Positions 2,081-16,515 of a DNA stretch of 24,000 bases are shown piece after piece. Within the stretch, counting starts at the first letter, position 1; the number at the start of each line of letters is the position of its first letter. The notes below the pieces were generated by a model. The model did no database searches. It saw only the letters and a list, made by a program, of their open reading frames with translations, and had not been told where the DNA came from. This DNA is from Williamwhitmania taraxaci (GTDB taxonomy: Bacteria; Bacteroidota; Bacteroidia; Bacteroidales; Williamwhitmaniaceae): the NCBI RefSeq assembly GCF_900096565.1, contig NZ_FMYP01000029.1, positions 22,789 to 46,788 on the forward strand, in the 5' to 3' direction. The translations under genes were made by a program, and so were the position numbers.

Positions 2081-3412
2081 TTATAGTTTCCGAGCAGCTT
2101 CCTTAAACTGGAGGCCCCGGTCTTCATAATTCTCAAACAAATCGAAGCTAGCGCAAGCAGGCGAAAGGAGCACAGTATCGCCCTTTTCCGCAAGTTCATA
2201 CGACCGCTTCACCGCCTCCTCGGCCGACTTTGCATCGACAATAGTGGCGATAACACCATCAAAAGCAGCATGAATCTTGGCATTGTCCACACCAAGGCAA
2301 ACGATTGCCCTCACCTTTTGCTTCACCAATTCCATCAGTTCATTATAGTCGTTGCCCTTATCAACACCTCCAACAATCCACACAACTGGTGTGGTCATAC
2401 TTTCGAGGGCATACCAAGACGAATTGATATTCGTAGCCTTGGAATCGTTAATAAAGGTAATACCTCGCACCTTAACCACCGGCTCGAGGCGATGCTCTAC
2501 CCCTTGGAAGTTGGCGAGACTATCGCGAATAAACTCTTTTCTAAGGTGCAAAACATGGCCGGCAACAGCAGCAGCCATGGAGTTGTAAACGTTATGCTTA
2601 CCTTTTAATGCCAGCTCTTCAATATTCATACTGAATTCAGAGTTGTTATATTTTACATGCAACGATGTTCCATCACTATAGGCTCCATTTTCTACCGGCC
2701 CGTTAAGGGAAAATGGCAGATATTCGGCTTCGTTTTGATATTCGGGTAAGTACTTCAACGTCTCGGGATCGTCGGCACAGTATAGAAAGGAGTCGCCCTT
2801 CCCCATATTCTGCACCACCCTAAACTTCGAACGGGAGTAATTCTCCATGATATATTCATACCGATCGAGATGATCGGGGGTAATGTTCATCAGAATTGCG
2901 ATATCGGCCTTAAACTCATACATGCCATCGAGTTGAAAGCTGCTGAGTTCAATAACGTAGTAATCATAATTCTCCAACGCAACCTGCAGAGCAAAGCTTT
3001 GACCAATATTCCCAGCCAAGCCTACGTTGAGTCCTGCCGACTTCAGCATATGGTATATTAGACTTGTAGTTGTAGTCTTACCGTTACTGCCAGTAATACA
3101 AATCGTTGTAGCCTTGCAATACCTGCCAGCAAACTCAATCTCAGAGATTACAGGAATATGTTTTGCTTTAAGAGCCTTAACAATAGGAACTTTATCAGGA
3201 ATGCCGGGACTCTTCACCACCTCGTCGGCGGCAAGAATAATTTCTTGCGAATGCTGTTGCTCCTCCCAAGTAATTCCATGAGCGTTCAGCAAATCTTTGT
3301 ATTCCTTTTTTATTGGTCCAAAATCGGAAACAAAAACCTCAAAACCCTTAAGTTTTGCAAGCACTGCGGTACCAGCTCCGCTCTCCCCTGCTCCTAACAC
3401 AACCAGCTTCAT
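2081..3412 (-). CDS. murD: UDP-N-acetylmuramoylalanine--D-glutamate ligase
   Basis: 443 aa. N-terminal Rossmann motif VLGAGESGAG and Mur-ligase P-loop ITGSNGKTTTT. dcw position between mraY and ftsW. Confidence 0.9.
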   Translation of the reverse strand: MKLVVLGAGESGAGTAVLAKLKGFEVFVSDFGPIKKEYKDLLNAHGITWEEQQHSQEIILAADEVVKSPGIPDKVPIVKALKAKHIPVISEIEFAGRYCKATTICITGSNGKTTTTSLIYHMLKSAGLNVGLAGNIGQSFALQVALENYDYYVIELSSFQLDGMYEFKADIAILMNITPDHLDRYEYIMENYSRSKFRVVQNMGKGDSFLYCADDPETLKYLPEYQNEAEYLPFSLNGPVENGAYSDGTSLHVKYNNSEFSMNIEELALKGKHNVYNSMAAAVAGHVLHLRKEFIRDSLANFQGVEHRLEPVVKVRGITFINDSKATNINSSWYALESMTTPVVWIVGGVDKGNDYNELMELVKQKVRAIVCLGVDNAKIHAAFDGVIATIVDAKSAEEAVKRSYELAEKGDTVLLSPACASFDLFENYEDRGLQFKEAARKL

Positions 3413-3414
3413 GG

Positions 3415-4668
3415 TTAGCGAATCTTTAGTGTAACAATGGTAACTACAGCTAACATAATGGCAATGATCCAGAAGCGCGTAACAATCTTTGGTTCTGGAT
3501 AACCTTTCTTCTGATAGTGGTGATGCAAGGGAGACATAAGAAACAGCCTACGCCCTTCTCCATATTTACGTTTAGTATGCTTGAAATATGATACCTGAAG
3601 CATTACCGATATACTTTCGACAAAGAATACGCCGCACAATATTGGAATAAGCAACTCCTTGCGCACCATGATGGCGAAAACAGCAATAATTCCGCCTAAG
3701 GCTAAACTGCCCGTATCGCCCATAAATACTTGAGCGGGGTAAGAGTTATACCAGAGAAATCCCACCGTTGCGCCAATTAATGCAGCAACAAACACAACCA
3801 ATTCCCCCGAATGCGGGATATACATTATGTGAAGGTAATCGGCAAAAATTACGTTACCCGATAAGTAGGCAAATATCCCCAAGGTGACACCAATAATGGC
3901 CGAGACCCCGGTGGCCAACCCATCCAGCCCATCGGTGAGGTTTGCTCCGTTCGAAACTGCAGTAATAATAAAGATACAGGCAGCCACAAACACCAACCAC
4001 GACCACTTTTCGGCTGTTTCGTGAGGTAGAAAAAAGAGAATATCGGCGTAATCGAACTCGTTGTTTTTTACAAACGGTATAGTCGTTTGGGTTGTTTTCT
4101 TTTCGGGGCCTAGGAAAACAGTGCGCTGCTCTGTAGCATCCATGGTGGAAACCACTTGCACTTCGGAACCGGGGGTGGTCATGGAGGTCTTTTCGCGAAC
4201 CACCACATCGTTGCTCATGTAAAGCGTTAAGCCTACCATCAGGCCTAAGATCACCTGTCCAAGGATTTTCATCTTTCCCGATAAGCCCGCCTTATTCTTG
4301 CGGAATACCTTTATATAATCGTCGGCAAAACCTACAGCCCCCATCCAAATGGTGGTAGCAATAAGCAGCAAAATGTATACGTTGGTTAAATCGGCCAACA
4401 GAAGGGTTGGGATTAAAATGGCAGCAAGGATAATCAAACCACCCATGGTAGGAGTCCCCCTTTTCTGCATTTGCCCTTCCAGACCCAAATCGCGAATTTC
4501 CTCTCCAATTTGAGAGCGTTGTAAGTAGCGAATTATGACCTTGCCAAAGAACAGCGTAAATAGCAAGGAGATAATAATAGCCAATGCCGACCGGAAGGAT
4601 AGGTAGTGAAACAACCGTGCTCCCGGGAAATTGAACTGCTGTAGATAGTTGAATAGATGGTATAACAT
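3415..4668 (-). CDS. mraY: Phospho-N-acetylmuramoyl-pentapeptide transferase
   Basis: 417-aa membrane protein with the MraY hallmarks GTPTMGG and [13 protein letters not shown]. dcw position. Confidence 0.9.
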
Positions 4669-11129: not shown

Positions 11130-11162
11130 ATAAAAAAGTTACATTTGACAAATTTCAATACT

Positions 11163-12125
11163 ATGCAACCACTAATTGCCCCAGTGGACAACTCCCTCAT
11201 CATTAAGGAACTTACACGGGAAAAATTTCTTCGCAGAACAAACAACGGTGGAAATAAACTGTACATTGTAACCGCACACGACTCGCCCAACATTATGCGC
11301 GAAATTGGTCGCTTGCGCGAGCTCACCTTCCGCGTAGCTGGCGGAGGAACCGGATTGAGTATGGATATCGACGAATTCGATACCAGCGAAAACCCCTACA
11401 AGCAACTTATCGTTTGGGATCCAAAAGATAGGGAGATACTGGGCGGCTATCGCTTCCACGTGCTTCATCATAAGGACGATCACATGAACATAGCTACTTC
11501 GGAGCTATTTTCCTTTACCGATAAATTCTTGGAGGGATACCTTCCTCATATGATAGAGTTGGGCCGCAGCTTTGTGCAGCCAAACTACCAAAGCACCGGC
11601 CGCATTAGCAAGGGAATGTGGGCCTTGGATAACCTCTGGGATGGCTTAGGTGCCCTCACGGTGGAATACCCCGAAATTAAATACTTCTTTGGCAAGGTTA
11701 CCATGTACCGCTCATACCACATGGAGGCGCGAAACTATATCCTTTACTTCCTCGACAAATACTTTGCCGATAGGGAAAACCTCGTAATCCCAAACTTCCC
11801 CATCGAGCTCGACATCAACCAAGAGGAGATGCAAAAGGTATTTATTGGCAACACCTACCAAGAGGACTACATTATCCTCAACAAGACGGTGCGTGGCTTG
11901 GGCGAAAACATTCCTCCACTCATCAACGCCTACATGAACCTCTCCCCCTCCATGAAGGTGTTTGGCACCGTGCTAAACCCTCACTTTGGCGATGTAGAGG
12001 AGACGGGGATTCTGCTCACCATAAGCGATATTTACGCCAAGAAGCTCGATCGGCACGTGAAAACGTTCCTCCGTAGGCCACGATTCTTGGACCGACTGAA
12101 AAGCAAAAAAGATTCCATTAGATAG
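11163..12125 (+). CDS. GNAT-fold hemolysin-like N-acyltransferase (OlsB/GlsB-like lipoamino-acid synthase)
   Basis: 320 aa from the ATG at 11163. It contains ELGRSFVQPNYQ, the OlsB/Acetyltransf_5-type core I recall for amino-acid N-acyltransferases. Paired with a PlsC-like gene, as in ornithine-lipid and glycine-lipid loci. Family assignment is from memory of motifs, not a search. Confidence 0.6.
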   Translation: MQPLIAPVDNSLIIKELTREKFLRRTNNGGNKLYIVTAHDSPNIMREIGRLRELTFRVAGGGTGLSMDIDEFDTSENPYKQLIVWDPKDREILGGYRFHVLHHKDDHMNIATSELFSFTDKFLEGYLPHMIELGRSFVQPNYQSTGRISKGMWALDNLWDGLGALTVEYPEIKYFFGKVTMYRSYHMEARNYILYFLDKYFADRENLVIPNFPIELDINQEEMQKVFIGNTYQEDYIILNKTVRGLGENIPPLINAYMNLSPSMKVFGTVLNPHFGDVEETGILLTISDIYAKKLDRHVKTFLRRPRFLDRLKSKKDSIR

Positions 12126-12148
12126 TTCGTTTTACCACAAAAACGACA

Positions 12149-12183
12149 GAGGGCCGCTCCGCAAGGGGGGGCCCTCACTTTTT
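12149..12183 (+). terminator. Rho-independent terminator of the acyltransferase operon
   Basis: GAGGGCC (12149-12155) pairs with GGCCCTC (12170-12176). The inner CUCC/GGGG pairs close a GCAA tetraloop. A T-run follows at 12179-12183, 24 nt after the stop codon. Confidence 0.7.
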
Positions 12184-12334
12184 ATAGGTGATAGTTAAAG
12201 GACAATTATGCTCCAAATGCGTGTCTGCTGCCGAGGAGTATTTGTTCCGAAAAGAGCGCTTAAAACCACCTTTTTGGAGAGTACTCCAATCGGACGGTTC
12301 CTTTTTTAAATCGGGGCGTATCGTTTACCTAAAA

Positions 12335-12366
12335 GGACCGCCCCTTTTTGGGAAAAGGGGCGGTCC
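12335..12366. terminator. Perfect 14-bp GC-rich hairpin, probable bidirectional terminator
   Basis: GGACCGCCCCTTTT (12335-12348), loop TGGG, AAAAGGGGCGGTCC (12353-12366). A-run on the left and T-run on the right. Lies in a convergent intergenic region. Confidence 0.6.
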
Positions 12367-12377
12367 GATTTTAAAAA

Positions 12378-12409
12378 GGGGCGTATCGTTTTCGAAAACG
12401 GAACGCCCC
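12378..12409 (-). terminator. Terminator hairpin directly downstream of the HU-like gene
   Basis: GGGGCGT..ACGCCCC encloses the palindrome CGTTTTCGAAAACG. On the minus strand it is followed by a U-run (plus-strand TTTTAAAAA at 12369-12377). It begins 22 nt after the HU stop. Confidence 0.6.
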
Positions 12410-12431
12410 GTTTGAATATTAGCAAAAACGG

Positions 12432-12812
12432 CTATGACTTTTCGTACTTTAGGGTGGCGATCATGTCGCGGAGATCGGTTCCGGGGCGGAAGGTAATCTT
12501 GGCATCGCGAATCATGGAGGAGTGGAATTTCTCCGAGCTCTCGGCTCCCTCGCTCGAGATGCCCACCTGGAACGAACCAAAGTCGCCAAGCCGAACAATC
12601 TTCCCTTGCGACAGCTCCTGCACGAGCATTTGCACAAAGGTATCGATTACCGCCACCACATCGGCGGGATTGACGGTAGAGCGCGCCGAGATATCGGTCT
12701 TTAAGGTTTTGAGGCTTACCTCGCCCGTGCTCACTGCCTGGGCATAAAACTTTTTGAGTGCTTGCCGGTCTTGTGGATTTGCCCGCTCCACCAGCACATA
12801 CTTAACTGGCAT
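12432..12812 (-). CDS. HU-family (Bacteroidetes HU_2-like) DNA-binding protein
   Basis: 126 aa. The core KIVRLGDFGSFQV resembles the HU/IHF beta-arm entry motif (GfGtF). The overall layout matches the histone-like proteins common in Bacteroidia. GC content is host-like. Confidence 0.7.
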   Translation of the reverse strand: MPVKYVLVERANPQDRQALKKFYAQAVSTGEVSLKTLKTDISARSTVNPADVVAVIDTFVQMLVQELSQGKIVRLGDFGSFQVGISSEGAESSEKFHSSMIRDAKITFRPGTDLRDMIATLKYEKS

Positions 12813-12954
12813 AGGATTAAAATTAGGTTAGTAAATAATTTTAACTGATTGTCTAAAAAGACAAAACCAAGTTACAAAACCATCCATATACGAAGGGCAT
12901 TTTTACCAGTTTTTTGACGAACGGAAAAGGTGGGGCATATGAAGAGGGCGAGAA

Positions 12955-14214
12955 TTATCCAAAATACTGGCTTAGATTAGTTGGGGTTGCAACTATCTTA
13001 TCAATTAGATCATTGTTTACAATCCAAAGTTCATAACGTTCAATGTCGCAATCATAGTTATTTTTAAGTATGCTATGATTTAACTCAAGCCGTAACCAAT
13101 ACTTTGTAAGTTCGTGATCTATTCTAAGTAATTCATTTATATCTTTAGTCTCTGCTTTAATCTTTTCTTTAAAGATTAAAAGGCATGGCCGCTCAATAGT
13201 TAATGAACCAATGATGTCTACAAGAACATACTTCCCATTATCTTGTGGTATTAACAAATCTACTTGACTATAAACTTTCCTGGCATCGTCCTTTATAAAT
13301 AGATTGAATAGTAAACTATCACGATCGATATACTCTTTCAATAATCTATTCAAAACTGAATGCGAAATGATTCTTCTATTTTTGCCCTTTGTGCTCAGAT
13401 AGAGAAATGCAGCATGATGTAATCTACTACCTGATTGCCTTTCTTTCTCGAAAGAATCTGATTGAAAACTAAATTTATCATCCTCTTCAAGCATTTTCAT
13501 TGAAGATCGATAATCTGGGTAATGGTCAGAAAATTCATCAACATTAATGCCAGCATCTTTGCTTAATGTTTGATGTTTAACTGTTATTTCATCGTAAAGA
13601 AAAGACAAGGAATCAAGGGGAATAAACTCTTCACTATATGTTCCTTTTCGGGTATTGTACCAGCCACATTTAATCTTAATAGAAGAAACTTCTTTAATCA
13701 AACAGTTTTCCAACTTTGTATCATATAACTTAGGACTGTCTACCTTTTCAAACCCTTTTACAAAAAACAATGGCGAAATAAATCGATTAATGTAACGTGA
13801 CTTACTCGGTTCCATCTCATTTGCAAATTGTTTCATTACCTCAATAACTCTTGTTTTCAGGGTCAATACAGTTCCTAAGGATAAAGATTCAATGTTCACA
13901 GAAGAAATATGATGCTGAAATTGAGTTAAGTGAGGTTCCAGAAACCAAGCATCCTTTACCTGACCCAATTCAAAATCAAACCATTGGCATAAATATTTAT
14001 TGTGAGAACTCACCTGTTTCGAGGTTTTTTCATCAAAAATATGCTCTGGTTTAGGATTGTGATTAACTTCTATCACCAGCATAAACGGCGCATCAAACTC
14101 TTTGCTGTTATGATTACCTAAAGCCCAATTACCCGCTTGATTTAAATTAGGATGAGAAGTAATTGCAACTATATCACCGATTTCAAAAATAGGTTTGATA
14201 TTTTTTGTTTCCAT
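12955..14214 (-). CDS. Uncharacterised protein (419 aa from the ATG at 14214; 436 aa if the TTG at 14265 is used). Divergent partner of the reverse transcriptase, with two tandem ~95-aa repeats and a distinct C-terminal domain.
   Basis: A long uninterrupted ORF in very AT-rich DNA, where stops are frequent. Internal repeat: KQVSSHNKYLCQWFD versus KEVSSIKIKCGWYN, each preceded by a G-[DT]-[IV]-[VL] strand and an [AS]P-hydrophobic strand. No signal peptide or TM helix. No family motif recognised. Confidence 0.75.
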   Translation of the reverse strand: METKNIKPIFEIGDIVAITSHPNLNQAGNWALGNHNSKEFDAPFMLVIEVNHNPKPEHIFDEKTSKQVSSHNKYLCQWFDFELGQVKDAWFLEPHLTQFQHHISSVNIESLSLGTVLTLKTRVIEVMKQFANEMEPSKSRYINRFISPLFFVKGFEKVDSPKLYDTKLENCLIKEVSSIKIKCGWYNTRKGTYSEEFIPLDSLSFLYDEITVKHQTLSKDAGINVDEFSDHYPDYRSSMKMLEEDDKFSFQSDSFEKERQSGSRLHHAAFLYLSTKGKNRRIISHSVLNRLLKEYIDRDSLLFNLFIKDDARKVYSQVDLLIPQDNGKYVLVDIIGSLTIERPCLLIFKEKIKAETKDINELLRIDHELTKYWLRLELNHSILKNNYDCDIERYELWIVNNDLIDKIVATPTNLSQYFG

Positions 14215-14215
14215 T

Positions 14216-14249
14216 TTTGTTTTAAAGGTAGAAATAATAGTTACTTTTG
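14216..14249 (+). promoter_or_regulatory. Candidate Bacteroidetes promoter (TTTG-N22-TACTTTTG) driving the RT leader and RT gene
   Basis: TACTTTTG at 14242-14249 is the only exact TAnnTTTG match on the plus strand between 14215 and 14640. A TTTG -33-like element lies at 14216-14219; the spacing is 22 nt against a consensus of 19-21. The predicted TSS is near 14255. Confidence 0.45.
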
Positions 14250-14383
14250 GTTGGGTTGGAGCCAATTATTTAAAGTGTTGCAGTTAATTGCGTCAATGTA
14301 TTGAAGGTTCTTTTTATAATTTTCAATCAACTATTAGCAACGGTTAATAGGGAGAAGAGTTAATGTAATTTCGGACATTCCCA

Positions 14384-14401
14384 AATTCATTCGAATGAAT
14401 T
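14384..14401. promoter_or_regulatory. Perfect 18-nt palindrome AATTCATTCGAATGAATT in the RT upstream region (operator or RNA hairpin)
   Basis: Read directly; it is self-complementary over all 18 positions. It lies between the predicted promoter (14242-14249) and the first possible RT start (14443). Confidence 0.4.
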
Positions 14402-14442
14402 GGTGAATTTCCTTGAGCATTAGGCCAAGCATGTAATCTATT

Positions 14443-16227
14443 ATGCACTCTAGAAGTAATTCTACAGGAATCATAGATGACACTGCTATCAGCAAGGCTA
14501 GGTTAGTATTTATCACTATCATGGTTTTCTGCAAAGTCAAAATTGACCCAGTATTCAATTACTTGGATAGTGGCGCACTAGAAATAGGTATGCAACATTT
14601 ATTTACAACACTGGGGTTGGCTCCTCCCATCTTTTTACAAAATGAAATGAAACCCAATAAGGATTGGTTTAAGCCTAAAGGCTATCTTCATCTCGATGAT
14701 AAGATTACATTCGACCAACGCAACTTGATCCAGCGAAAGGTATCGAACGTAAGTTTTGTGGGTAATCATGCTTTCCTACCCCTCCTATATAAAACAGTAA
14801 CTCAGAGAAAGTATAAAAAGATAAAACAACCAAATGGAATCGTTAGACGCAGCCATACGGAAATAAAAAACGGTAAGGTTATTCCCACCAAAAAAGTCAG
14901 GCCAATAATGTATGCATCACACCTCGATGCTCAAATTTATGCCTACTATGCCAATAAAGTTCTGGGTGAGAAATATGAAAAATTACTTAAACAGACGCAC
15001 GCACTAAGCAACTGCATTTGTGCCTACCGAAAAATCCCTTCGGATGATGGAACGAAGAAGAAGAATAATATAAGTTTTGCCCACGATGCCTTTCAGGAAA
15101 TAAAGCGAAGAGGCGAATGTGCTGCCATCGCACTTGACATTGAAAGTTTTTTTAGCTCGCTCGACCATGTCGTTTTGAAACATCAATGGTGCCAACTACT
15201 TGGCAAATCGATTTTGCCCAAAGATCATTACAATATCTTCAAATCAATTACCCGTTTCCATTATATTAACATTAATGACTTTAAAACAACGCATAATGGA
15301 TTTGACGAAGCCCATATTGCTGAGTTAAGAAAGAAAGGAATCCACTCCTTTCTGGAATCGCCCAAAGAGTTGCAAGAACTCATTCGCACTAAGCAAATTC
15401 TAGTTCACAAAAATCAATTCGTAAGAAAGAAAGAGGCTGTAAATGTATTGGTTGGCATACCACAAGGGCTTGCTATAAGTGCAATGCTTGCCAACATCTA
15501 TATGTATGCCTTCGATAAAATGATATATGAGGAGCTGGTTTTGAAACGAGGCGTATTTTATAGAAGGTATTCGGATGATATTGTTCTTGTATGTGAAACA
15601 GATGAACGCAATGAGGTTTTATCTTTTGTGATGGATGCAATTCGAGGCAAAGAAACTCAATTAACTATCTCCGAGAAAAAAACTGAAGTGTCTACTTTCA
15701 AAAAGGAATTTGTCGGTAAAGAAGAACGACTACAGGTATATAGGGAAGAGACAGGAACTCCCAGATATAATGTACCTTTCGTTTACCTTGGTTTTGAGTT
15801 CTACGGTTATCAAACCCTAATAAAGTCAGCCAACCTTGCAAAATACTATCGCAGATTAAAGGATTCAATTCGAAGAGCAAGCCGTAGAGCAGACAGAAAA
15901 AAGGAGAGAGACCTTTCTGACGAAAAAATTCTCTTTAAGACAAAATTGTTTCGCCAATTAACCTTTAAGGGAAGGAAGACAAGAATGCTAAAGATCAAAC
16001 GATCAAAACGTATTAAGGATATGTTTGGCAACTGGCAGTATATAGTAGAAGAGTCTCCGCGAAAATACCGAGGGAATGTCTTTAGGTATGTGTATAATGC
16101 AGCCAATGAGATGAACGCCCCTGAAATAAAAAGACAGTACAGGAATCATTGGTCAATAATGGAAAAAACGGTTAATGCATACAATTTTGTGAACACTAAA
16201 CTAAATCAAGAGAAAAAGACATCGTAA
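14443..16227 (+). CDS. Reverse transcriptase (RNA-directed DNA polymerase), stand-alone Abi/UG-like type. The start is uncertain; alternative ATGs are at 14590 and 14647.
   Basis: All RT blocks are present. These are KVRPIMYASHLDAQIY (motifs 1/2), CAYRK, AIALDIESFFSSLDH (motif A, Asp at nt 15136-15138) and GIPQGLAISAMLANIYM (motif B). The remainder are YRRYSDDIVLV (motif C, YSDD at nt 15568-15579), LTISEKKTEV and FVYLGFEF. A basic helical thumb-like tail follows (RGNVFRYVYNAA). Confidence 0.92.
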   Translation: MHSRSNSTGIIDDTAISKARLVFITIMVFCKVKIDPVFNYLDSGALEIGMQHLFTTLGLAPPIFLQNEMKPNKDWFKPKGYLHLDDKITFDQRNLIQRKVSNVSFVGNHAFLPLLYKTVTQRKYKKIKQPNGIVRRSHTEIKNGKVIPTKKVRPIMYASHLDAQIYAYYANKVLGEKYEKLLKQTHALSNCICAYRKIPSDDGTKKKNNISFAHDAFQEIKRRGECAAIALDIESFFSSLDHVVLKHQWCQLLGKSILPKDHYNIFKSITRFHYININDFKTTHNGFDEAHIAELRKKGIHSFLESPKELQELIRTKQILVHKNQFVRKKEAVNVLVGIPQGLAISAMLANIYMYAFDKMIYEELVLKRGVFYRRYSDDIVLVCETDERNEVLSFVMDAIRGKETQLTISEKKTEVSTFKKEFVGKEERLQVYREETGTPRYNVPFVYLGFEFYGYQTLIKSANLAKYYRRLKDSIRRASRRADRKKERDLSDEKILFKTKLFRQLTFKGRKTRMLKIKRSKRIKDMFGNWQYIVEESPRKYRGNVFRYVYNAANEMNAPEIKRQYRNHWSIMEKTVNAYNFVNTKLNQEKKTS

Positions 16228-16348
16228 TCTACGCAGCATTCATATATAACTTTCCTCGCAAATTGGCGTTCTTCTGCCTTTACTTCCTTTCCACTAGAAT
16301 TAATCAATATCCGAAACTTCATATACGTCCAAGCCTACCACATCATAT

Positions 16349-16386
16349 AAAAAAACCCCCAAGGATTGCACCTTGGGGGTTTGTTG
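16349..16386. terminator. Bidirectional rho-independent terminator shared by the RT gene (+) and purF (-)
   Basis: A7 run, then CCCCCAAGG (16356-16364), loop ATTGCA, CCTTGGGGG (16371-16379), then TTTGTTG. It lies between convergent genes. Confidence 0.75.
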
Positions 16387-16515
16387 CGATTACTTCAAAC
16401 CGATAACTATATAAAGTCGTTGTGTGATTGTCATTTGATTGTGATGCAATAAACCAAAAAAATCCGAAACTCCTACTCTCGCTTACTCATTTTAATAAGA
16501 TTTAACACTCCGCCC

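Follow-up and report, generated by a model that had tools for sequence, protein, structure and literature searches.

The window analysed here comprises 24,000 nucleotides (nt) from Williamwhitmania taraxaci (contig NZ_FMYP01000029.1, positions 22,789 to 46,788), and we focus on a low-GC (guanine plus cytosine) block within it that probably encodes a DRT2 anti-phage system with the neo mechanism, in the form of a Bacteroidota lineage. The list of open reading frames (ORFs) of the window shows a divergent pair of long ORFs, 12955-14265 on the minus strand and 14443-16227 on the plus strand, and GC content is 32-38% across 12801-16400 compared with ~47% in the flanks. Both features had been described in an original prediction made from the letters of the sequence, although its single-line GC spots (28% and 60%) exaggerate the contrast. 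Its remark that mobile and accessory elements are lacking also stands: there is no tRNA in the whole window, and the ORFs of the block include no second reverse transcriptase (RT) and no integrase- or transposase-like ORF. The block had been thought to consist of exactly two long ORFs, but it has three parts, the overlooked one being a structured non-coding RNA (ncRNA) of ~380 nt, located at 14253-14632 on the plus strand, which fills the divergent spacer and is the functional core of DRT2. The locus combines a DRT2-family RT with a YSDD active site, this covarying ncRNA directly upstream, an antisense stop-free frame through the ncRNA core and a divergent YodC-family gene found clade-wide.

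Reverse transcriptase, structured RNA and partner gene

The RT gene occupies 14647-16227 on the plus strand and encodes 526 amino acids (aa), as delimited by PADLOC, the solved-structure chains and the NCBI start. The protein matches the PADLOC Drt2 model PDLC03757 at E 2.7e-132, with UG17 next best at 1e-23, and its Drt2 score far exceeds those for Drt9 and UG17. The solved Klebsiella pneumoniae Drt2 chains 9c0i, 9lje and 9lv7 align with residues 6-453 at E ~3e-56, followed by Drt3a at 3e-8. These matches assign the RT to DRT2/UG2, within class 2 of the UG/Abi enzymes. The YSDD motif is invariant across 18 homologues, confirming the intact active site reported in the original prediction. The length of 594 aa given there is too long: alignments with homologues and profiles begin only at residue ~64-75 of the long ORF and the NCBI annotation starts at 14647, indicating that the first 68 codons, which overlap the ncRNA, are not part of the RT. 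In public annotation such loci are labelled only as 'reverse transcriptase domain-containing protein' and 'hypothetical protein', and the long RT ORF swallows the ncRNA. Compared with K. pneumoniae Drt2 (PDB 9c0i), the RT is ~100 aa longer, owing to several short insertions and a C-terminal extension of ~70 aa (residues 454-526). This extension is without counterpart in the solved structures and is conserved across the Bacteroidota clade (e.g. R475, G476, N477, Y481 and H501).

The spacer of W. taraxaci was aligned with those of its six closest relatives, drawn from a comparison set of 80 Bacteroidota loci with related RTs (37-51% identity). The ends of the alignment are conserved and its middle is variable. 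The predicted structure contains three nested long-range helices (14253-14267/14617-14632, 14273-14282/14591-14600 and 14290-14294/14572-14576), hairpins on the 5' side that include a handle hairpin at 14328-14350, two more on the 3' side (14552-14569 and 14578-14587) and a core left unpaired. RNAalifold yields 75 pairs for the seven sequences, 37 of them with compensatory changes. When 63 pairs were counted at the RNA level, 93.4% were paired and 33 of the 63 had changed on both sides, a result matched by 0 of 500 shuffles, with slid controls at 32-51%; the structure scored in this way was derived from the same seven-sequence alignment. The W. taraxaci RNA folded alone gives the same helices at -107.1 kcal/mol (z = -4.5). 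G-U pairs, which are strand-specific, identify the plus strand as the RNA in both RNAalifold and the pair counting. Rfam returned no match for the region, either at the gathering threshold or at E <= 1, and nhmmer profiles of the ncRNA ends reached no sequence beyond the seven-member clade.

Inspection of the sequence against the published Bacteroidetes consensus (PMC6847099) points to a candidate promoter for the ncRNA/RT transcript at 14216-14249 on the plus strand, composed of TTTG (14216-14219), N22 and TACTTTTG (14242-14249). This candidate ends 3 nt ahead of the first ncRNA helix. The usual spacer of Bacteroidetes promoters is 19-21 nt, and the N22 found here is 1 nt longer. The interval between the partner start codon and the ncRNA start also harbors an AT-rich palindrome, which in W. 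taraxaci (14225-14249) reads AAAGGTA-N11-TACTTTT and resembles back-to-back divergent -7-type boxes. In L001, L002, L004, L055 and L062 (alignment columns 26-53), it takes the form of a near-perfect palindrome of ~28 bp, CTAAGATAAATAT/AATATTTAACTTAG. It could represent an operator or an overlapping pair of divergent promoters.

The divergent gene on the minus strand (12955-14214) encodes an accessory protein of 419 aa, which we refer to as the partner. It has no Pfam match and NCBI names it a hypothetical protein, and it had earlier been regarded as unassignable. Its N-terminal half does match two PADLOC models: RTasWYL-YodC at E 1.3e-31, where residues 27-225 of the 436-aa ORF align with profile positions 4-195 of 354, and RTasYodC at E 3.3e-25 (best stretch, profile positions 3-92 of 219). 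A word-indexed protein search with the partner returned only the protein itself. An exhaustive search of 1.84 billion representative proteins gave 119 relatives, nearly all matching residues 1-205 only and five matching through the C-terminus. Using a hidden Markov model of the shared N-terminal region, we found the partner in 77 of the 80 loci; the contigs of the other three end <560 nt upstream of the RT, so that co-occurrence with the RT, on which the earlier proposal of a linked pair depends, is 77/77 in the assessable Bacteroidota loci. The two genes are divergent in 73 loci and co-directional in 4. The co-directional partners (L030, L041, L046 and L049; Flavobacterium-type, ~2700-3580 or equivalent, plus strand) lie upstream of the ncRNA.

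AlphaFold2 modelling of the whole partner (pLDDT 70) placed a beta-rich fold with confidence at residues 1-208 and an alpha/beta fold at the C-terminus, joined by a linker (209-291) of low confidence. Conservation, the model and Foldseek define residues 1-208 (13591-14214, minus strand) as the YodC-type region common to all partner variants, with tandem beta-barrels that weakly resemble tandem Tudor, Agenet and SAWADEE-like barrels; some family members have DUF2158 matches. Residues 285-419 (12958-13362, minus strand) modelled alone reached a pLDDT of 81 and a pTM of 0.77. Foldseek against the PDB returned nine matches at E <= 1e-3, all from the Cas4/RecB-type PD-(D/E)xK superfamily, with MGME1 at E 2e-4 and TM 0.56 and others including AddA, RecE, Cas4, AdnAB and Exo5. 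According to the model, this domain has a Cas4/RecB-like nuclease fold with an alpha-beta-beta-beta-alpha-beta core. The likeness to MGME1, AddA, RecE and Exo5 lies in the predicted fold (TM 0.5-0.56) and in two invariant acidic residues on adjacent strands; the partner has no detectable sequence similarity to these nucleases, and its alignments display no (D/E)xK Lys, QxxxY motif or Fe-S cysteines. Invariant positions are D319, D333, Y315, Y372 and R375. A profile search for the C-terminal domain in 5.8 billion proteins scored nothing, its source proteins included, which makes it a weak negative, and only noise came out when a partner-family profile was run against PDB sequences.

Three partner architectures are distinguished among the loci, and the C-terminal type follows the RT/ncRNA clade. 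In Flavobacteriia, partners of ~250 aa match RTasYodC over its full length (positions 2-218, E ~1e-91), and we assign them to UG2 variant 2. Partners of 370-450 aa in Cytophagia/Sphingobacteriia-type genomes match full-length RTasWYL-YodC (E 1e-103 to 1e-113) and carry a Pfam WYL domain, which we assign to UG2 variant 3. The third type, of 409-447 aa, matches only the first ~200 profile positions, continues into the nuclease-fold domain and has no published equivalent. Among the 80 loci, this domain is confined to W. taraxaci and the six relatives L001-L004, L055 and L062, with about five representative clusters in the 1.84 billion proteins; no Pfam WYL match was found in the partner of W. taraxaci or of its five closest relatives. 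UG2 RTs that adjoin cluster 315 (YodC) or cluster 103 (YodC plus WYL-like) were described by Mestre et al. 2022 as variants 2 and 3; these authors suggest an accessory role for the YodC genes, the RT and ncRNA being sufficient in K. pneumoniae (PMC9226505). The W. taraxaci locus resembles these variants (RTasYodC, RTasWYL-YodC) in placing a UG2 RT beside a gene with an N-terminal YodC-type region, and departs from them in that its partner covers only ~the first 200 profile positions, lacks WYL and bears the Cas4/RecB-like domain. The nuclease-fold partner is an undescribed architecture, belonging to neither of the two published partner types. Our literature search found no paper that tests the function of any YodC partner and none on the nuclease-fold type.

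Hence the suggestion of an undescribed RT system with a new pairing does not survive: the RT is DRT2/UG2, the UG2-YodC adjacency was published in 2022 (PMC9226505), and the known partner of this characterised RT group matches the W. taraxaci protein at the level of the shared N-terminal domain. The DRT2 family and the UG2-YodC pairing were already known, and what is new is the nuclease-like domain of the partner, together with an apparently Bacteroidetes-adapted predicted neo promoter.

Predicted neo template and junction promoter

The mechanism of DRT2 was solved in 2024: part of a structured ncRNA encoded immediately upstream of the RT is copied by the enzyme into a neo gene of tandem repeats (PMC12039810; bioRxiv 10.1101/2024.05.08.593200). 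Published DRT2 templates lie between ACA repeats and have lengths that are multiples of 3; concatenating their reverse complement gives a stop-free frame and completes a promoter at the repeat junction (PMC12039810). In W. taraxaci, the unpaired ncRNA core is covered by a stop-free frame of 222 nt on the minus strand (14337-14558; local GC 34%). From this antisense frame and the clade comparison, we place a predicted template of 177 nt at 14358-14534 on the plus strand, its edges being inferred. The template is flanked by a candidate direct repeat on the same strand, found in the alignment, with AGT-1 at 14358-14360 (the analogue of ACA-1 in K. pneumoniae DRT2) and AGT-2 at 14535-14537, the predicted landing site of the template jump. 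The reverse-complement concatemer of 14358-14534 has exactly one open frame, with a chance probability of 3.6% at its composition, and the unit read on the minus strand would encode 59 aa, LQKTMIVINTNLALLIAVSSMIPVELLLECIIDYMLGLMLKEIHQFIRMNLGMSEITLT. Residues I, L, V, M and F make up 53% of this unit, compared with a mean of 46% over 46 units.

An imperfect hairpin of 20 nt (GGACATTCCCAAATTCATTC / GAATGAATTGGTGAATTTCC, 85% complementary, no loop spacer) lies within the predicted template at 14373-14412. It may be a template-internal structure like the helices of the K. pneumoniae template.

Across the 80 loci the antisense open frame recurs, its median length being 250 nt as opposed to 150 nt on the sense strand (25-38% GC). 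In the seven-member W. taraxaci clade, with a boundary pair located in the conserved blocks, the units measure 177, 174, 183, 177, 174, 174 and 177 nt, all multiples of 3 and all circularly open. The AGT...AGT pair is exact in W. taraxaci, L001 and L002, and the other four members share AG only. In Flavobacteriia (L005-L053, ~100-330 nt upstream of the RT), the spacing between highly conserved anchor columns varies almost only by 3 (197, 200, 203, 206, 209 and 224). An offset-pair scan in this group singled out one best pair on two criteria, a circular open frame in 39/39 loci and the longest flanking repeat, GTA...GTA, which is exact in 27 of the 39 and delimits units of 180-207 nt. Scanning all residue classes on the direct-repeat criterion alone returned the same pair, with a unit that is again a multiple of 3. 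This repeat-only scan is informative because a linear ORF also gives indels in multiples of 3, and only a concatemer requires the absolute repeat-to-repeat distance to be one.

Across 46 units, a circular stop-free frame is present in all 46 on the antisense strand and in 5 on the sense strand, where chance would provide ~1.8% per unit. The fraction of T at codon position 2 is 0.46 in the neo frame, against 0.26-0.31 in the other frames, which agrees with the published hydrophobic bias of Neo (PMC12039810). Strict stop avoidance and codon-position-2 T coexist in these units with no excess of third-position substitutions, a combination unusual for translated sequence. The missing excess could reflect an overlapping constraint from RNA structure or selection on composition only.

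The promoter expected at the junction is of the Bacteroidetes -33/-7 type, TTTG/TANNTTTG, refined to TAHHTTTG (PMC6847099; PMC9723704), and in this phylum initiation is favoured where the start codon has an A at -3 (PMC6847099). The reverse-complement junction of W. taraxaci, AATTTGGGAATGTCCGAAATTACATTAACT|TTGCAGAAAACCATG, contains TTTG, N19 and TAACTTTG, after which come a short leader rich in A, an A at -3 and an ATG in frame. Within the predicted 177-bp repeat, the junction itself reads ...ACATTAACT|TTGCAGAAAACC (TTTG-N19-TAACT|TTG). The unconcatenated genomic context reads TAACTCTT, and the box is broken there. All seven clade junctions have the form TAnnT|TT(G/A). Promoter-like sites span the junction in 17 of 20 cases, with ~3.3 expected under uniform placement, and strict consensus sites do so in 5 of 5 (0.8 expected). 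In Flavobacteriia, 11 of the 39 junctions separate a -33 TTG/TTTG before the junction from a -7 TAnnTTT(G/A) after it, as in K. pneumoniae; the remaining 28 units have no recognisable junction promoter. Judged by sequence, the reconstituted promoter is of the host's own type, and in the W. taraxaci clade the junction would cut through the -7 box itself. Changing TAACTTTG to TAACTCCG should abolish the predicted junction promoter. As a separate test, a loose pattern combining junction promoter, length in multiples of 3 and open frame was discarded as far too permissive in AT-rich DNA, with many matches each in 75 of the 80 loci.

The resemblance to experimentally characterised DRT2 of K. pneumoniae (Gao 2020; Tang 2024; Wilkinson 2024) extends from the homologous RT (E 3e-56) and the ncRNA directly upstream to conserved 5' and 3' ncRNA scaffolds around a poorly conserved template with putative trinucleotide direct-repeat flanks. 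As predicted here, it further includes a unit in multiples of 3, a stop-free hydrophobic concatemer and a promoter that is complete only at the junction, followed by an in-frame start. The individual parts differ. The RT has 526 aa in W. taraxaci and 425 aa in K. pneumoniae; the ncRNA has ~380 nt and ~280 nt, respectively, with unrelated sequences (no Rfam or profile match); and the template has 177 nt (59 aa) and ~120 nt (40 aa). AGT replaces ACA as the putative flanking repeat, the predicted promoter is a Bacteroidetes -33/-7 instead of a sigma-70 -35/-10 promoter, and the junction passes through the -7 box instead of between the two boxes. Unlike in K. pneumoniae, an accessory gene is always present in the assessable Bacteroidota loci. 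The predicted neo parts (AGT repeat, 177-nt unit and Bacteroidetes promoter) are lineage-specific, while the logic is as published. DRT9 (poly-dA, PMC12483538) and DRT10 (tandem repeats, PMC12632851) likewise pair a class 2 UG/Abi RT with an ncRNA to give templated repetitive complementary DNA (cDNA) as immune output. Their products are homopolymers or short repeats, protein-primed and untranslated, unlike what the DRT2 reading predicts for the W. taraxaci locus.

Proposed mechanism and competing explanations

Taking K. pneumoniae DRT2 as the model, the RT would bind the ncRNA and reverse-transcribe the ~177-nt template, and upon phage infection the concatemer would be made double-stranded. 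A Bacteroidetes sigma-A promoter (TTTG-N19-TAACT|TTG) with CAGAAAACC and an ATG behind it would then arise at every repeat junction. From this promoter a stop-less mRNA would be produced and translated into a repetitive Ile/Leu-rich Neo of 59-aa units, which would arrest the cell (abortive infection). A more speculative step concerns the partner, which might, as we tentatively suggest, be an accessory factor and not the effector. Its tandem YodC barrels and its swappable C-terminal nucleic-acid module (Cas4/RecB-like, WYL or none) might sense or process single-stranded nucleic acid, either first-strand cDNA or a phage product, and thereby gate neo synthesis. Generalised to a large Bacteroidota branch of DRT2, the YodC-family protein may be an obligatory third component that supplies infection sensing or second-strand licensing by binding or trimming single-stranded nucleic acid through the exchangeable module, with neo genes rebuilt around lineage-specific promoters, here with a -7 box from two template ends. 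We regard this wider proposal as possible and doubtful at the same time, in clear distinction from the core of the reading, DRT2 with neo, which we consider likely.

Several observations weigh against the reading or parts of it. The RT scores 353.9 bits against the NCBIfam Drt2 equivalog NF041746, under the 390-bit cut-off, which explains its generic NCBI name; the model appears to be tuned to an enterobacterial-type clade, so the score appears to mark divergence within the DRT2 family and not exclusion from it. For W. taraxaci taken alone, the statistics are weak (open-frame p ~0.055, circular-frame p ~0.036). In the seven-sequence clade, neither the open frame nor the flanking repeats alone fix the template edges: a column-pair edge scan is non-discriminating, as any in-frame sub-segment of the open frame passes, and direct repeats alone are too noisy with seven sequences. 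An alternative register, 14365/14536 (unit 14365-14535, 171 nt), is also a multiple of 3, but it yields no junction promoter, and the junction promoter depends on the AGT register of the edges. Only 16 of the 46 units have a recognisable junction promoter. Substitutions between related units are distributed over the codon positions as 415/365/420, with no third-position excess (p = 0.10; p = 0.57 for 12 disjoint pairs), indicating that Neo does not experience classical purifying selection on its amino acids. What appears to be constrained is the absence of stops, length in multiples of 3 and hydrophobicity, as opposed to any particular amino-acid sequence. This agrees with published work describing the template as the ncRNA's least conserved part (PMC12039810), yet one line of support is lost. 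Tang et al. (bioRxiv 10.1101/2024.05.08.593200) note that Neo is hard to annotate in divergent DRT2 clades and that alternative mechanisms are possible. The W. taraxaci locus and its clade are known from sequence and predictions, K. pneumoniae DRT2 from experiment. As for the partner, its proposed role is inferred and held tentatively, and the position two after D333 is I, V or L in the clade alignments, so that the canonical (D/E)xK Lys is missing and catalytic activity of the C-terminal domain is uncertain.

The constant presence of the partner in all 77 assessable loci would also be expected if the partner were the effector, with RT/ncRNA cDNA activating or guiding its Cas4/RecB-like domain against phage or host DNA and the antisense frame being incidental. 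The likeness of its C-terminal fold to the single-stranded DNA nucleases MGME1, Cas4, Exo5 and RecE, the invariance of D319 and D333 and the latitude that Tang et al. allow for divergent clades point the same way. However, the majority of partners in this RT clade lack a nuclease domain, being either YodC-only proteins of ~250 aa or proteins with both YodC and WYL, so the nuclease cannot be a general effector; the absent Lys, the stop-free circular frame kept in multiples of 3 with hydrophobic bias by 46/46 units, and the sufficiency of RT and ncRNA for defence in K. pneumoniae (PMC9226505) likewise make this explanation improbable. A different role for the partner, which would leave the neo core unchanged, is that of a transcriptional regulator that de-represses the ncRNA/RT upon infection, in the manner of WYL-type repressors. 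The divergent genes do have a short common control region, the AT-rich palindrome between the partner and ncRNA starts occurs in the six relatives (alignment columns 26-53), and many partners have WYL domains, which regulate several defence systems (PMC9226505). We nevertheless consider regulation unlikely, as none of the variants yielded a helix-turn-helix or another known DNA-binding domain, the W. taraxaci variant has a nuclease fold and no WYL, and in four loci the partner is co-directional to the RT.

Two further explanations fare worse. The antisense frame (14334-14558; 74 codons from TTG, or 62 from ATG at 14522) could be an ordinary small hydrophobic gene co-transcribed with the partner, with no concatemer involved, since it lies on the partner's strand immediately upstream of it, and indels in multiples of 3 and a hydrophobic bias are equally expected of a linear ORF. 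This is very improbable given that the region belongs to the structure of a plus-strand RNA, as covariation and the strand-specific G-U pairs indicate, that the Flavobacteriia repeat-to-repeat distance is a multiple of 3 when picked by repeats alone, that promoter-like sites cluster at the junctions, that a third-position excess is missing and that the RT is homologous to an enzyme shown to act through concatemers. Decay into a non-functional remnant of a horizontally acquired DRT2 would agree with an isolated insertion without adjoining defence or mobility genes and with an RT under the NCBIfam cut-off. Both ORFs are nonetheless intact and full-length relative to their homologues, and YSDD, the helices of the ncRNA, the template frame and the junction motif are preserved as well, leaving very little probability for decay. 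We prefer the reading of the locus as a DRT2 system that works through neo.

DRT2 ranks among the most unusual gene-expression mechanisms, and it raises two questions: how infection triggers it and whether the neo strategy is common to divergent clades. The W. taraxaci locus and its 80 relatives offer a concrete Bacteroidota version, with predicted template edges, a predicted 59-aa Neo unit and a putative host-type junction promoter. The partner, essentially always present and found in three domain architectures, is a natural candidate for the missing regulatory step (trigger or licensing).

Insertion site and neighbouring genes

The block is embedded between housekeeping genes. On one side lie ftsW, murD, mraY, murE, ftsI, mraW and two acyltransferase genes, followed by an HU gene, and on the other side purF, yebC, a MiaB-like radical-SAM gene and rsmB. 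One of the acyltransferases is GNAT-like (11145-12125). In 14 metagenomic contigs, chosen by the shared upstream neighbour(s) of purF (a 156-aa ORF, plus yebC where the contig reaches), purF is directly followed by a homologue of this GNAT-like gene, and the HU, RT and partner genes are all absent. From this arrangement, the insertion gap spans ~12126-16515, HU gene included, and the DRT2 block is inserted between the GNAT-like acyltransferase gene and purF in W. taraxaci. The closest purF relative (71% identity; L081, 7918-10210) has an elongation-factor-G-like GTPase after purF instead of the GNAT-like acyltransferase, indicating that the downstream junction of purF is variable and that the ancestral GNAT|purF junction is the majority pattern, not a universal one. 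We found no convincing target-site duplications or terminal inverted repeats around the block. A search of 2.9 million viral contigs for phage carriage of this RT clade gave no relatives.

The gene at 12432-12812 on the minus strand encodes a DNA-binding protein of the HU-HIG family (Pfam HU-HIG, E 5e-35) and has a GC content of 54%. It had been taken as the host-side border of the block, which is probably incorrect, as it falls inside the gap that is empty in the 14 syntenic contigs. As a component of DRT2 it was considered and rejected, since it never adjoins DRT2 in the 80 loci. Its GC content and its absence beside DRT2 elsewhere indicate that it is probably a separate acquisition. The difference in GC content between the HU gene (54%) and the DRT2 block (32-38%) is explicable by two acquisitions at one site or by a host gene having moved there.

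Where the RT and purF genes converge, an inverted repeat at 16350-16385 forms a GC-rich hairpin (AAAAAACCCCCAAGG / CCTTGGGGGTTTGTT), likely a bidirectional terminator. The spacer between the GNAT-like gene and the HU gene (12126-12431) contains many GC hairpins, one of which, at ~12141-12177, is a likely terminator. The same spacer holds a perfect 32-nt palindrome, GGACCGCCCCTTTTTGGGAAAAGGGGCGGTCC, at ~12335-12366 and two copies of a 14-nt direct repeat, GGGGCGTATCGTTT, at ~12313-12326 and ~12378-12391. These repeats and hairpins could be terminators or a small repeat element at the edge of the insertion.

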